NCBI RefSeq assembly: GCF_048403405.1 | Contig: NZ_CP183129.1 | Length of the DNA: 64,000 nt | From: Escherichia coli | GTDB lineage: Bacteria > Pseudomonadota > Gammaproteobacteria > Enterobacterales > Enterobacteriaceae | Strand: one strand, 5' to 3' | Part shown: positions 1-10,201 of the stretch, in pieces | How the letters are laid out: the number at the start of each line of letters is the position of its first letter | Position numbering within the stretch: the stretch's first letter is position 1 | Made by a program: the position numbers and the translations under genes | The notes under the pieces: generated by a model | Databases searched by the model: none | Told to the model about the DNA's origin: nothing | Seen by the model: the letters and a program-made list of their open reading frames with translations, nothing else

Positions 1-296
1 TTCACTGTATTGATGGCGGGTATGCGACGGAGTTATCCGCAGAGTTTGATACTCCGTGGGGGCCGCCGTCAGCAGCGGTTTTGTGTGCTCTGTCTGCGCG
101 TTTCCGCTGTCAGGTCCGTCATGTCTATGCCGAAGAAGGCTGTGGTTTCTGCGGATACAGCGAGTATGACCATGGCCGGTTAACCGACCATGAATCTGAT
201 GAGATTGAGTTCAGTGATGAAGAGAATGAGGACGGTTTCCAGGATGTGACGGGACCGGACTATATTCTTGATTCATTGCCACATTACGGAGGGTGA
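1..296 (+). CDS. 3' part of a hypothetical protein with a highly acidic C-terminus; the frame is open from the window edge (5'-truncated by the window)
   Basis: Frame 3 has no stop from nt 3 to TGA at 294-296; the six-frame track only reports it from an internal TTG at 81. No family recognised. Confidence 0.35.
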   Translation, partial: HCIDGGYATELSAEFDTPWGPPSAAVLCALSARFRCQVRHVYAEEGCGFCGYSEYDHGRLTDHESDEIEFSDEENEDGFQDVTGPDYILDSLPHYGG

Positions 297-326
297 GGTT
301 TCCGTACTGATTTAACTGACTGAAAA

Positions 327-357
327 CCCGGTAGTGATACCGGGTTTTTTTATTTTT
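327..357 (+). terminator. Rho-independent terminator (hairpin cccggta-gtga-taccggg followed by a T run)
   Basis: Perfect 7-bp stem with 4-nt loop, then TTTTTTTATTTTTTT; lies just downstream of the stop at 296. Confidence 0.7.
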
Positions 358-439
358 TTCGGAAAACTAATTTCGGCTTTTGTTTTATTCCCGCATTGTT
401 ATCGTGATGCCGTCATTGAATGAGATGGGGGAGAGTGTG

Positions 440-766
440 ATGAGATGTGAATTTGGGCAGGGTGTGAGGGAGTGGGCTCAGGATTTTTGGAATGAAATTC
501 TGTTTCCTTTTTTTGTCACAGCCGGACTTTTGTTGCCACTGATTCTGGTTGTGGGCGTTTTCCTGGTCTGGGATGAACAGCGCCAGGCTGAGTGGGGGCG
601 TTATTACCTGACGGAATGTCAGTTGGTGGAAAGAAACAGAAATGCGGGCTTCTGGTCAGGTCGGGAAAATATTCTGCAATGCGGAATGACCCGGGAGCAT
701 GTGAATGCGGACGCGTATGAAAAGGCCATCCGTGCCTGGCAGCAGAAACAGACAGAGACAGAATAA
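440..766 (+). CDS. Small hypothetical protein with one predicted transmembrane helix
   Basis: ORF 380-766; the ATG at 440 is preceded by GGGGGAGAG (Shine-Dalgarno-like). Hydrophobic stretch ILFPFFVTAGLLLPLILVVGVFLVW. Start choice is uncertain. Confidence 0.4.
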   Translation: MRCEFGQGVREWAQDFWNEILFPFFVTAGLLLPLILVVGVFLVWDEQRQAEWGRYYLTECQLVERNRNAGFWSGRENILQCGMTREHVNADAYEKAIRAWQQKQTETE

Positions 767-941
767 TAAAACATTATTCATGTAATCTTCTGTTTTGTTG
801 CCGGAATTATTTTTGTGGATGAGTTAACGTAATGAAAATAAGGTGCATTTATTATTTATTCTTATCCTGATATTAAAATAATTTATGTTTTATTTAATGT
901 TGCGTTGTTGTTTTTACCGAATTAAAGAGGCAGTAACACCG

Positions 942-2534
942 ATGTTACCGTGGTTTCGTAAATCGCTTTCCCGGAAAGCGGAAGAGAAAACATTGCGTGT
1001 TTCCCCGGGAAACACGCAGGAAAGGCCATTATTTATCCGTGACAGTGACGGCTTTTATTTACCGCAGGCAGCTGACGTATTGCTGACCACACCGCAGCGG
1101 CAAAACTGGTTACAGCAAATCAGCCGGGTGGTAGCGTTACCGGATAACCAGTACCGGGCACTTTGCCTGTCTCCTTTGCAGACGCTGGCAGAACGACTTC
1201 AGTGTGTGCCGGCATCAAAAACCGGGAAATATGCCGGCGAAGGGGGATTGCTGGATTTAACGCTGAATACGACAGCCTGGTGTATGCGGATGTCCCAGAA
1301 AGAGATGCTGCCCCGCGGGCTTCCGTCGGAAGAGCAGAGCCGTCAGTTCAGCGCCTGGAATGTGTGTGTTTTTTATACCGGACTGTTTTACTGGTTACCG
1401 TTAACGGCACAGTTTGAGGGACAACTGAACAGCCTGTCGGCGTGGCAGCCGGGGATGAGTGCGCCCACCGTACCGTATCGTTTTCGCTTTCATGAGCCGG
1501 TGCCGGATATGACGCATTTTCGCCGGACGACGGGGGCCATGATGGCTTTCCGGCTATTACCGGAGAAGGTAATCCACTGGTTGTCGGGTACACCAAAGGC
1601 GCTTCAGGCGTTGTCTGACGTGGTGACCGAGCCGGTAAACGGTGATAATGATTTACAGCGTGTGCTGAATGAGGCTCTGGCTGCGTTCCCCGCCGGTGCA
1701 TTGCCGGCATTTTCTTCCGTTGTTTCTATGTCAGCGCCTGATGCTTCGTCTTCAGTGCTATCAGGGCAGCCGGAGAATGATATCGCGTCATTGGCGCCTG
1801 CTGAATTGGCGCAAAAGCCACAACCTGAAACTCCGTCTGTAACATCTGTATTGCCTCCGGAGTCTGTTACTTCAGAAAAAACAGAGAACGGAATTCACTG
1901 CGATATACCGCTAATGGTAGTTGCAGAAGCAGAAGGTGCGGTTGTCCATGGGGCACTTGATTCTGCTGATGAAAAAACTGTCTCAGATATGTCTCCTCCG
2001 TTATCTGAGGATATGAAATATGCACTTGAATTATCAGGTTTAATGCCGGAAATCTTATCTGATACTCAGACGGGCAATCGTGATGAGAAGGATGAACAGC
2101 GCGAAAACTGTCTGAGTATAAAAAATGAAGGAGAGGCTTTCTGGGCGTGGTTTAAGTCCGGATTATTGGGCGGAAAACTGGCAATAAATACGCCGGATGC
2201 GAAGGTTCACTGTGTCATGGAGTATTTGTTTTGCCAGAGTCCGGCTGTTTTTTATCAGTACATACAGGAGGCGGGTAAAAATCCGGATGATATCGGCCAT
2301 ATTATTTCTTCTTTTGAATCCCTTAAATTGCACCGGATTATTCGTCATGATACCCGACAAACAGGGCATTTCAGGGCTCGAATTTATGGTGAAAAACTGA
2401 ATCCGCTGAGTGATAACAAAACATTAATTACGTTATCCCATAAAAAAATCAATGGTTACATGATTAAAGGACGTCAGATTTTTGGCATGAATATGCCGGA
2501 GGAATCATTGTTTATTCGTATTGTCGGAAGTTAA
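942..2534 (+). CDS. Hypothetical ~530-aa protein: N-terminal domain, Ser/Pro/acidic linker, Cys/His-rich C-terminal domain; function unknown
   Basis: Long ORF (track 885-2534); the ATG at 942 has AAAGAGG upstream. Ends 15 nt before the recombinase start, suggesting co-transcription. Confidence 0.6.
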   Translation: MLPWFRKSLSRKAEEKTLRVSPGNTQERPLFIRDSDGFYLPQAADVLLTTPQRQNWLQQISRVVALPDNQYRALCLSPLQTLAERLQCVPASKTGKYAGEGGLLDLTLNTTAWCMRMSQKEMLPRGLPSEEQSRQFSAWNVCVFYTGLFYWLPLTAQFEGQLNSLSAWQPGMSAPTVPYRFRFHEPVPDMTHFRRTTGAMMAFRLLPEKVIHWLSGTPKALQALSDVVTEPVNGDNDLQRVLNEALAAFPAGALPAFSSVVSMSAPDASSSVLSGQPENDIASLAPAELAQKPQPETPSVTSVLPPESVTSEKTENGIHCDIPLMVVAEAEGAVVHGALDSADEKTVSDMSPPLSEDMKYALELSGLMPEILSDTQTGNRDEKDEQRENCLSIKNEGEAFWAWFKSGLLGGKLAINTPDAKVHCVMEYLFCQSPAVFYQYIQEAGKNPDDIGHIISSFESLKLHRIIRHDTRQTGHFRARIYGEKLNPLSDNKTLITLSHKKINGYMIKGRQIFGMNMPEESLFIRIVGS

Positions 2535-2549
2535 AAGCAGGAGGTGTTT

Positions 2550-3620
2550 ATGAAAGATAATCACAGTTCTGATGAACATCAGCAGAAAGTGGATGTATGG
2601 GAGCAAATGCTGAGTAATTACTTTTACAATAAAGTATTACGGCCGGATACGGAGAAAACATACCGTAAGATGGTACGTCTTTTTCTGCGTTATTGCGGAG
2701 TTTGTGAAAATGCGTTACCGCTACCGGATGAAGTGACACATGAGCATGTGCTGAGATGGCGAAGAAATGAGCTGAATATTCAGAAAGTCCGGGAACGGAC
2801 ATGGAACACAAAAACCAGGCATATGCAGTCTCTGTATAATTATTGGATCAAAAAAGGGATTGTTTCACTTAAAGAAAACCCGTTCTCAGAAACACAAATT
2901 GAACCGGGTGAAAAACAGAAAAAAGTCTATACACAATCACAACTGAGAACGATTTATCGTATTCTGGAACAATTTCAGCAACAGGAAAATATGCTGCCAC
3001 CTGATCAGGCTCACTTTCAGGCATGTGCGGTTTATCCCACTCGATTCTGGTTTGCTGTGCTGGAAACGCTGAGGCTGACGGCTATTCGTTTTAACCAGCT
3101 GATTAACCTGCATATTGGCGATCTGGATTTTGAGGAGTGTACGATCACATTGCGCAGTGAAAGCAGTAAAAATCACCGGGAATATCAGATTGCTTTTGTT
3201 CAGCCACTACGTTGTTTACTGGCGCCCTTGGTTGAGGAAATGCGTTGTCACGGGGCGGATAAAAACGATATTTTGTTTGATGTTCATCGTCTTTATCATA
3301 AACGACTATCCCGCTCTGAAACTCCACTCAGTCAGACGATACGTTCTTTTTTCCGTCGTTTATCAAAGGAATGTGGATTTCATGTCAGTCCCCATCGTTT
3401 CAGACATACACTGGCGACGACATTAATGAAACATCCTGAACGTAATATGCAATTGACGAAACAGATGTTAGGACACCGTAGTCTCTCTTCAACTATGGAA
3501 TATATTGCTCTGGATGCATACAGTACAGTCAGGATCTTGGAGAATGAGTTAGGTGAGTTTTTAACAATGGGATTAGGTGGTGAACTTACAAGGCTAGCAT
3601 CAAAAAGACAGAGGATGTGA
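2550..3620 (+). CDS. Tyrosine site-specific recombinase (phage-integrase family, XerC/D/Cre-sized, 356 aa)
   Basis: C-terminal catalytic signature HRFRHTLATTL ... LGHRSLSSTMEYI (H-x-x-R and H...Y nucleophile), upstream Arg-containing box (ETLRLTAIRF). AGGAGG lies 5 nt before the ATG at 2550. Adjacent to the tRNA-Phe 3' end. Confidence 0.85.
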   Translation: MKDNHSSDEHQQKVDVWEQMLSNYFYNKVLRPDTEKTYRKMVRLFLRYCGVCENALPLPDEVTHEHVLRWRRNELNIQKVRERTWNTKTRHMQSLYNYWIKKGIVSLKENPFSETQIEPGEKQKKVYTQSQLRTIYRILEQFQQQENMLPPDQAHFQACAVYPTRFWFAVLETLRLTAIRFNQLINLHIGDLDFEECTITLRSESSKNHREYQIAFVQPLRCLLAPLVEEMRCHGADKNDILFDVHRLYHKRLSRSETPLSQTIRSFFRRLSKECGFHVSPHRFRHTLATTLMKHPERNMQLTKQMLGHRSLSSTMEYIALDAYSTVRILENELGEFLTMGLGGELTRLASKRQRM

Positions 3621-3853: not shown

Positions 3854-3929
3854 TGGTGCCCGGACTCGGAATCGAACCAAGGACACGGGGATTTTCAATC
3901 CCCTGCTCTACCGACTGAGCTATCCGGGC
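3854..3929 (-). tRNA. pheV: tRNA-Phe (GAA)
   Basis: Reverse complement matches the E. coli tRNA-Phe sequence over 76 nt including the CCA end; located next to yqgA as pheV is in K-12. Confidence 0.95.
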
Positions 3930-8778: not shown

Positions 8779-9885
<1,107 letters not shown>

Positions 9886-9922
9886 TTATGCAAGTTGCCG
9901 GAGGCGTGCTCCGGCACTGTTT

Positions 9923-10201
<279 letters not shown>

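Follow-up and report, generated by a model that had tools for sequence, protein, structure and literature searches.

The frame at the start of an Escherichia coli window is the 3' end of a DUF1281/Api92/YubB-family gene of ICEPm1, followed by a putative terminator and with a proposed role in establishment

We analyzed a 64,000-nucleotide stretch of Escherichia coli DNA (assembly GCF_048403405.1, contig NZ_CP183129.1; hereafter the window), which opens with a reading frame cut off by its edge. This frame, at positions 3 to 296 of the plus strand, is almost certainly the 3' third of a gene for a 333-residue protein of the DUF1281/Api92/YubB family, carried by the integrative and conjugative element (ICE) ICEPm1. 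The hairpin that follows it at 322 to 357 is very probably an ordinary intrinsic terminator, which is its simplest reading. As a whole, the explanation that we favor (the end of this gene, a putative terminator, and a proposed role of the protein in establishing the element in a new host) has, in our estimate, a probability of about 0.8. The gene is already annotated, its family has been characterized structurally, and its ICE is published; what the initial annotation noticed at the window start was correctly located and already known.

Frame 3 has no stop codon from the window edge until the TGA at 294 to 296, as had been claimed, and codes for 97 residues with the end ...DHESDEIEFSDEENEDGFQDVTGPDYILDSLPHYGG / ...LTDHESDEIEFSDEENEDGFQDVTGPDYILDSLPHYGG. 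This fragment alone matches PF18406 (DUF1281_C) in Pfam with an E value of 5.7e-17 and 61.9 bits (cutoff, 22.8); hence, it is a genuine coding sequence and not a chance open frame. The upstream 236 codons lie outside the window and were taken from proxy genomes that are 99.8 to 100% identical to it over positions 1 to 900. In two of the proxy loci, L001 from strain 005008 (100% identity) and L008 (99.8%), the frame extends over these 236 codons to an ATG without any in-frame stop. The full gene in strain 005008 (L001:11295-12296, where window position 1 corresponds to L001 position 12001) has 333 codons and starts at an ATG with AGAGGA seven bases before it, and the last 97 residues of its product are those of the window translation. 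The same layout is present in GN02323, the overall closest genome (99.4% over 9 kb), and the gene is annotated as "DUF1281 domain-containing protein" in all 13 E. coli chromosomes that are 99.8 to 100% identical over window positions 1 to 900. The upstream extension and full-length search that the initial annotation had suggested have thus led, in the proxies, to a 333-codon DUF1281-family protein with a start codon and AGAGGA, and not to the in-frame stop immediately outside the window, lacking a start or ribosome-binding site, that it had contemplated. The features of the gene end and its flank, with the evidence for each in parentheses, are as follows.

3 to 296, plus strand: last 97 codons and TGA of the DUF1281/Api92/YubB-family gene (translation, Pfam, full gene in L001, match to PDB 2IJR).
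186 to 254, plus strand: acidic segment, residues 298 to 320 (DHESDEIEFSDEENEDGFQDVTG), 48% D/E (composition, AlphaFold2 strands, charge kept in homologues).
282 to 293, plus strand: the four-residue HYGG motif that closes the protein (an end of the form [HNDS][YF]GG in about 80 of 126 full-length homologues; final GG in 72 to 73% of a 127-sequence alignment).
322 to 357, plus strand: intrinsic (Rho-independent) terminator-type hairpin, with a stem of 11 to 12 bp, a GTGA loop, and T7-A-T7 (repeat scan, folding, allele alignment).

The full protein matches PF06924 (DUF1281) over residues 32 to 230 (136.1 bits against a gathering score of 27.3; E = 1.2e-39) and PF18406, a ferredoxin-like domain, over residues 245 to 315 (58.1 bits against a cutoff of 22.8). 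Its sole solved relative is PDB 2IJR, which is the Yersinia pseudotuberculosis "hypothetical protein api92" (E = 2e-41; 1.2e-76 in a profile search), and the model of the protein has the same predicted fold as 2IJR, with a helical middle part packed against a ferredoxin-like sheet. Prediction gives a soluble, strongly acidic protein (net charge of -21, isoelectric point of 4.8). The very acidic end reported before is indeed there: the last 45 residues have a net charge of -14 (15 D/E and 1 K/R), and residues 298 to 320 are 48% acidic (11 D/E in 23 residues). This end is not a loose tail: AlphaFold2 puts residues 295 to 320 in three beta-strands (295 to 303, 305 to 310, and 316 to 320), with a block-mean predicted local distance difference test score of 81 to 96 over residues 291 to 320, and limits the uncertain part to about the last 10 residues. 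The acidic stretch is therefore predicted to be a conserved, folded beta-hairpin plus a further strand that would give the C-terminal domain a charged face. After it comes the short conserved end GPxYIxD..HYGG.

Conservation was assessed in an alignment of 127 full-length homologues with a median identity of 32%. The best-kept features are the N-terminal MPNWCxN, AGCAG, GFNG, DFDTPW, the GP at residues 320 and 321, and the terminal [HN][YF]GG; the MPNWCxN strand, GFNG, and DFDTPW are all found in our protein and are kept in 85 to 96% of the homologues. By site, conservation reaches 85% for P2, 90% for N3, 92% for C5, 94% for N7, 91% for D143, 85% for D176, 85% for N193, and 88% for T253, and in a set of 28 sequences H276, C286, and G282 are invariant and E280 is nearly so. 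The negative charge of the C terminus is also kept, with a median of -9.5 over the last 45 residues in 126 homologues, whose whole proteins have a median net charge of -21. The family is large: a profile search of 1.84 billion representatives gave 5260 clusters at E <= 1e-3 and 99 at E <= 1e-30.

The stem of the hairpin starts 26 nt 3' of the DUF1281 stop codon, on the sense strand. Its perfect 11-nt arms (323 to 333 and 338 to 348) enclose the 4-nt loop GTGA, or 12 pairs are formed if it is taken as 322 to 349, and 3' of the stem lies TTATTTTTTT, with T residues up to 357. In a context of 69 nt, the folding energy is -22.5 kcal/mol, unmatched by any of 200 shuffled sequences (z = -4.2). The intrinsic terminator that had been claimed is thus present as a hairpin and T-run, although its stem begins at 322/323 and not at 327. 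Both elements are unchanged in two aligned E. coli alleles that are 87 to 91% identical, in which the positions just upstream differ. A pattern scan found 11 terminator-like sites in 4.2 kb where 3.7 were expected; single matches of this kind are weak evidence, and the site at 322 to 357 is among the strongest and is correctly placed. Nothing in Rfam reached its gathering score at the hairpin, and known RNAs such as rseX, STnc430, and the Trp leader were rejected as candidates (22 to 30 bits against cutoffs of 41 to 55), the terminator shape alone having matched. As a terminator, the hairpin would end the DUF1281 transcript ahead of the gene for a small putative membrane protein and the relaxase gene traI.

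The inverted repeat at 323 to 348 could, instead of or besides terminating transcription, belong to the ICE's origin of transfer (oriT), as a relaxase-binding repeat beside the nick site. More than 99% of elements have their oriT within 5 kb of the relaxase gene, barring known exceptions (bioRxiv 10.64898/2026.01.13.699239), and the repeat precedes traI by about 540 bp. It is also invariant, as are the next ~100 nt, between alleles whose flanks differ, and the synonymous divergence between ICEPm1-type and 87 to 91% identical alleles drops from about 0.23 in codons 1 to 236 to 0.05 in the adjoining codons 237 to 333, the last 97 of the gene. However, the low divergence over window positions 3 to 460 can be due either to a recombination patch or to constraint at the nucleotide level near the presumptive oriT, and a GC-rich stem with a 4-nt loop and a long T-run, 26 nt past a stop codon on the sense strand, has the exact form of an intrinsic terminator; a very similar hairpin and T-run is found 3' of the upstream CbtA-like gene. 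We consider the oriT reading of the repeat quite improbable and retain that of an intrinsic terminator. Directly upstream of traI, window positions 767 to 884 are AT rich and have weak inverted repeats (758 to 768/783 to 793 and 846 to 857/876 to 887); since oriT usually adjoins the relaxase gene, they are a candidate oriT region.

The gene belongs to a conserved segment of the ICE with the local order ArdC, CbtA-like, DUF1281, small open reading frame (ORF), TraI, Int, and tRNA-Phe. The DUF1281 gene precedes traI by about 590 bp and has the same orientation as traI and ArdC. Farther upstream, L001 carries the CbtA-like gene, ArdC (with ArdcN and metallopeptidase domains), unannotated ORFs, and type IV secretion system genes. 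Downstream of the terminator, the window contains the following.

440 to 766, plus strand: small ORF of 108 residues from the ATG at 440, with one hydrophobic stretch (ORF list).
885 to 2534, plus strand: traI, the TraI_2-type relaxase gene of the ICE (Pfam PF07514 and PF07515; annotated as TraI domain-containing protein).
2544 to 3620, plus strand: tyrosine recombinase (integrase) gene of the ICE (Pfam PF00589, annotation).
3854 to 3929, minus strand: tRNA-Phe (pheV), the integration site (ARAGORN, Rfam).

The ICE ends at the tRNA-Phe gene, because the 3' 52 nt of this gene (3854 to 3905) are one copy of the direct repeat of the element, and the adjacent yqgA and speC identify the locus as pheV. 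In strain 005008, the second copy of the 52-nt repeat, with one mismatch, is 92.7 kb away, beside SPI-7-type ParA, DnaB, and ParB genes; the island at pheV is the 92.7-kb ICEPm1. The G+C content is 45.2% in the first 3.85 kb of the window and 50.8% in the remainder.

A matching region was found in 40 of 5426 complete E. coli genomes, 13 of them near-identical: over window positions 1 to 900, ten chromosomes are 100% identical and three more are 99.8% identical. In these 13 genomes the chromosomal flank (yqgA, speC, nupG) is more diverged, and identity over the full 9 kb is only 98.5 to 99.4%; near-identical ICE DNA with more diverged flanks is consistent with recent independent acquisitions. 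The exact protein bears a multispecies Enterobacterales label and occurs on at least 1000 contigs, and its cluster relatives are found in Proteus, Providencia, Morganella, and Klebsiella. The block comprising ArdC, CbtA-like, DUF1281, small ORF, TraI, and Int is syntenic in ICEPm1 and in two E. coli variants of 87 to 91% identity, and the ratio of nonsynonymous to synonymous divergence (dN/dS) between the ICEPm1-type and these alleles is about 0.15. The variants of about 90% identity from mouse E. coli (H15 to H17, H22, and H23) are accessions published as ICEPm2 carriers (PMC11278526).

Homologues with 33 to 40% identity are present on at least 5000 plasmids, 3934 of them conjugative, mostly IncF and IncI plasmids of E. 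coli, Salmonella, and Shigella. On IncI1, IncF, Pantoea, and Klebsiella plasmids, DUF1281 is the first gene of a co-directional array that begins just after divergently oriented umuDC or partition genes and continues with small ORFs, an orphan DNA methylase, YubE/DUF1380, KlcA/ArdA, ssb, a ParB-like gene, psiB, and psiA. Under the names YubB/YccB/YfdA/YfaB/YafB and the label "Uncharacterized; DUF1281", the family is the 27th largest among those enriched in plasmid leading regions, with 1949 members, a false-discovery-rate P value of 0, a median position of ORF 22 from oriT, and a strand value of 1, as in other co-directional families (Samuel et al. 2024, Nature 635:186, PMC11541004). On a Pantoea pPATH plasmid, genes for an ArdC-type antirestriction protein, DUF1281, and TraI reportedly occur together in a unique fragment (PMC10425158). 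In ICEs of beta-proteobacteria, the gene comes after those for a DUF6094 protein and an SNF2-type helicase and before type IV secretion system genes.

Four plasmid copies (L002, at 8780-9001, L003, L009, and L010) have an imperfect hairpin of 165 to 240 nt that ends at most ~30 nt before the ATG, with single-strand DNA fold z scores of -2.5 to -5.1 and sequences that differ between plasmid groups. This hairpin could be a single-strand promoter heading an operon of DUF1281, small ORF, and methylase, and perhaps corresponds to the "class 3" M.EcoGIX promoter of Wen et al. 2025. In L002 and L003, the gene spans 9002 to 9927, with the ATG at 9002 preceded by a GAGGAG ribosome-binding site and followed by codons for MPNWCSNR; the RefSeq start is at 9025, eight codons past this ATG, and the annotated proteins consequently lack the most conserved motif of the family.

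Just upstream of the ICE gene (L001:11228-11286), there is a strong hairpin after the upstream gene and then a second one, in which a U-rich stretch is paired to the Shine-Dalgarno sequence (CCUCUUUUUU/AAAAGAGG); an alternative pairing in ICEPm1, GAGGGCUU/AAGCCCUC with a U-run, forms a terminator. Two beta-proteobacterial ICEs (L006:9970-10000 and L007:9960-10000) have the same design in another sequence, CUCCUUA/UAAGGAG. These Shine-Dalgarno-pairing hairpins of the ICE copies may exert translational control.

Considering that ArdC is encoded two genes upstream, that traI is adjacent, and that the plasmid homologues are enriched in leading regions, we infer an early role of the DUF1281 protein in establishment or anti-defense; this is the best-supported inference as to its function, although we put it somewhat short of an even chance. 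The DUF1281 protein would be produced early upon entry of the element into a new cell, together with ArdC, other anti-restriction proteins, orphan methylases, single-stranded-DNA-binding protein (SSB), and PsiB, and would bind a host protein, probably a defense or DNA-processing factor, by means of its conserved acidic C-terminal face and the invariant N-terminal MPNWCxN strand. This mode of action by protein binding is the more doubtful part of the proposal. Such timing would fit what the main text of Wen et al. 2025 reports for leading-region genes of pESBL and F, an induction of up to ~500-fold in new transconjugants, from single-strand promoters (PMC12672017).

Several observations weigh against an establishment role or the way in which it would be exerted. 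Neither sequence nor structure of the protein is similar to any known anti-CRISPR or anti-restriction protein, and PADLOC gave no match. P0090, a relative of the Api92-like subfamily, to which the solved structure belongs, has no acidic HYGG tail; hence, the tail is not essential to the fold or to the function of every member. A net charge of -21 over 333 residues is, besides, a far lower density than that of true DNA mimics. The long hairpins upstream of the plasmid genes fold equally well on both strands, and no such long single-strand hairpin was found upstream of the ICE copy, which has a terminator and a hairpin covering the ribosome-binding site instead. For the ICE copy, "leading region" is a presumptive label, based only on proximity to traI and the general rule on oriT placement, and MOBH elements are awkward for defining a leading region (bioRxiv 10.64898/2026.01.13.699239). 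The 1949 family members gave no sequence or structure match to known anti-CRISPR or anti-restriction proteins in the screens of Samuel et al. (PMC11541004). The main text of Wen et al. 2025 states that induction does not extend to all leading genes, and that text, supplementary files aside, contains no report of induction of a DUF1281 gene (PMC12672017). Lastly, our literature search (DUF1281, Api92, PF06924, PF18406, yubB, yccB, yfdA) returned no functional study or experiment on any member.

The acidic segment invites comparison with the DNA-mimic anti-restriction proteins of the ArdA/Ocr kind, in which case the hairpin would mimic the backbone of DNA so as to block type I restriction enzymes. 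The net charge of -21, the isoelectric point of 4.8, and the dense patch of 11 D/E in 23 residues are in keeping with this, as are the retention of the charge across the family and the proximity of the known anti-restriction genes ArdC, ArdA, and KlcA. However, there is no similarity in sequence or fold to ArdA, ArdB/KlcA, or Ocr, the patch is short, with a charge density far under that of known mimics, the elements that carry the gene already encode ArdA, KlcA, or ArdC, and the Api92-like subfamily dispenses with the patch altogether, which makes a DNA mimic unlikely. The protein might rather be an enzyme in which Pro2, Asn3, Cys5, and Asn7 form an active site with D143, D176, GFNG, and DFDTPW, for instance a cysteine- or N-terminal-proline-dependent hydrolase or modifier of a host molecule, the acidic hairpin being incidental. 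That the most conserved positions across the 127 sequences are polar or catalytic-type residues, and that H276, C286, and G282 are invariant and E280 nearly so in the smaller set, points in this direction; a proline right after the initiator methionine also recalls the catalytic Pro1 of the tautomerase superfamily, although this is a lead only. We regard an enzyme as an outside chance.

The acidic C terminus could also serve as a secretion signal, by which the protein would be exported from donor to recipient through the conjugative type IV secretion system, in the manner of the glutamate-rich "E-block" of Dot/Icm substrates. An acidic cluster does lie within the last 15 to 35 residues, the extreme C terminus is conserved and modeled with lower confidence, and the type IV secretion system of IncI1 plasmids is related to Dot/Icm. 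The same tail is, however, carried by F-type, I-type, and ICE (GI-type) elements, whose coupling proteins recognize different signals; moreover, the acidic stretch is predicted to form folded strands and not a free signal, and placement in the leading region favors synthesis in the recipient, so that export is very improbable. The initial annotation had taken the frame for the 3' end of another island cargo gene, that is, one for a variable host trait (virulence, metabolism, or resistance) unrelated to transfer. The gene end and the island stand, and a location on a pathogenicity-type island, together with the fact that no function has been assigned to the gene, could be cited in favor of cargo, as could the name of the solved relative Api92, which comes from the Yersinia adhesion pathogenicity island. 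The cargo label itself does not hold up well. ICEPm1 and the 87 to 91% identical variants alike have the gene beside ArdC and traI, whereas the accessory modules of ICEPm1/ICEPm2-type ICEs differ greatly (PMC11278526), and the family is found in the backbones of beta-proteobacterial ICEs and is enriched in the leading regions of thousands of plasmids with very different cargo. Since the block is conserved, dN/dS is about 0.15, and the homologues are a regular feature of plasmid leading regions, the gene appears to be transfer or establishment equipment and not a variable trait; a cargo role is improbable.

A bolder form of the establishment role is that DUF1281/YubB/Api92 proteins make up an unrecognized class of establishment effectors of IncF/IncI plasmids and of ICEclc/PAPI/ICEPm1-type ICEs, in which the Pro-Asn-Trp-Cys strand, the acidic hairpin, and the free ...HYGG end would act as one site that disables a host factor. 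Such an effector could be, for example, a decoy or inhibitor of a defense that senses acidic or Gly-Gly termini, or a small enzyme that uses Cys5 or Pro2. We offer this as a tentative idea, at well under even odds.

Database searches place DUF1281 as a conjugative-element family. A phage origin was rejected, since only 2 of 50,697 phage records match and one of them is a 1.9-kb fragment. Membership of a defense system was likewise rejected, with no PADLOC match for the DUF1281 protein, ArdC, the CbtA-like protein, or the small ORF. NCBIfam has no model for the DUF1281 protein, and among PHROGs only families of unknown function were found. In BFVD, proteins of tailed phages and giant viruses (Moumouvirus, Aureococcus virus, Mimiviridae) have a predicted YubB ferredoxin-like domain, and the domain has also been predicted in cryptophyte polinton-like viruses, where it was treated as if it were an electron-carrier ferredoxin (PMC12220804). 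The sequence offers no support for an electron carrier, since the name describes the fold only. Fusions of DUF1281 with PsiB, DUF1380, or TrbC are limited to one or two sequences each and are likely gene-call or assembly artifacts, hence uninformative.

Some observations concern the neighboring genes. The small ORF, from which the DUF1281 gene is separated by the terminator, is annotated as a hypothetical protein of 78 residues in L001, 111 in L004, and 109 in L005. The 78-residue version (strain 005008) starts at 530, within the hydrophobic stretch, and the ATG at 440, with GGAG upstream, looks better; judged by eye, the hydrophobic stretch looks like a membrane helix. This ORF (440 to 766) had no match in Pfam, PHROGs, or PADLOC, and it is not homologous to the small ORF that follows the plasmid genes (E = 15). 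The CbtA-family toxin-like gene (L001:10911-11210, ~0.8 to 1.1 kb upstream of the window start) codes for 99 residues and starts 9 nt after ArdC, and no CbeA-type antitoxin gene is adjacent to it in L001. At the far end of the ICE in strain 005008, just past the second 52-bp repeat (L011:18532-20569), lie a truncated Arm-DNA-binding gene (an integrase fragment), IS26, and a 5'-truncated mlaE, indicative of an IS26-associated rearrangement at this junction.

For annotators, the first 3.9 kb of the window are the integrase-proximal end of ICEPm1 at pheV, and the cut-off frame belongs to a conserved gene that is already known. It is the family, more than this window, that is of interest. By size, the family ranks within the top 30 of those with enrichment in plasmid leading regions. 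A crystal structure has been available since 2006, and members are carried by thousands of resistance plasmids as well as by an ICE that spreads broadly; even so, no function has been assigned to it. If it is true that the family helps mobile elements to establish themselves in new hosts, it would offer a candidate target for measures against the spread of resistance plasmids. The N-terminal motif, the acidic hairpin, and the HYGG end provide concrete sites for mutation.

Of the closest known systems, the YubB/YccB/YfdA/YfaB/YafB proteins of IncF and IncI plasmids are 33 to 40% identical to the ICE protein over the full length and share MPNWCxN, the acidic tail, and the HYGG end. Their genes are on conjugative elements, as is the ICE gene, and are co-directional with anti-restriction, methylase, ssb, and psiB genes. 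They differ in setting, since the plasmid copies lie ~22 ORFs away from oriT, where the leading region has its oriT-distal edge, and are preceded by a long hairpin, while the ICE copy is separated from traI by ~590 bp and has a terminator and a hairpin covering the ribosome-binding site before it. In addition, the ICE protein has an insertion of 20 to 25 residues (about residues 196 to 217) that is missing from most plasmid proteins. Api92 itself (YAPI of Y. pseudotuberculosis; PDB 2IJR, a structural-genomics entry assigned to DUF1281 in Pfam) differs in that C286 of the GCGFCG motif is replaced, and its subfamily relative P0090, unlike the ICEPm1 protein, has no acidic HYGG C terminus. ArdA and Ocr are alike in being acidic and in lying on mobile elements near other establishment genes. 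Their charge density is much higher than that of the DUF1281 protein, to which they have no relationship in sequence or fold (no homology to ArdA, Ocr, or ArdB was found). As for early expression, the main text of Wen et al. shows it for leading-region genes generally and not specifically for the DUF1281 gene (PMC12672017). The island in the window resembles ICEPm1 of Proteus mirabilis in its integrase, relaxase, GI-type type IV secretion system, and SPI-7-type ParA/DnaB/ParB modules. The P. mirabilis element was reportedly described by Flannery et al. in 2009 and 2011. Both share the tRNA-Phe (pheV) site, the 52-bp direct repeats, and a size of about 92.6 kb (PMC11278526). Here the element is in E. 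coli, where it is rare, and the match rests on repeats, size, site, and protein cluster and not on an alignment of the whole element to that of HI4320.

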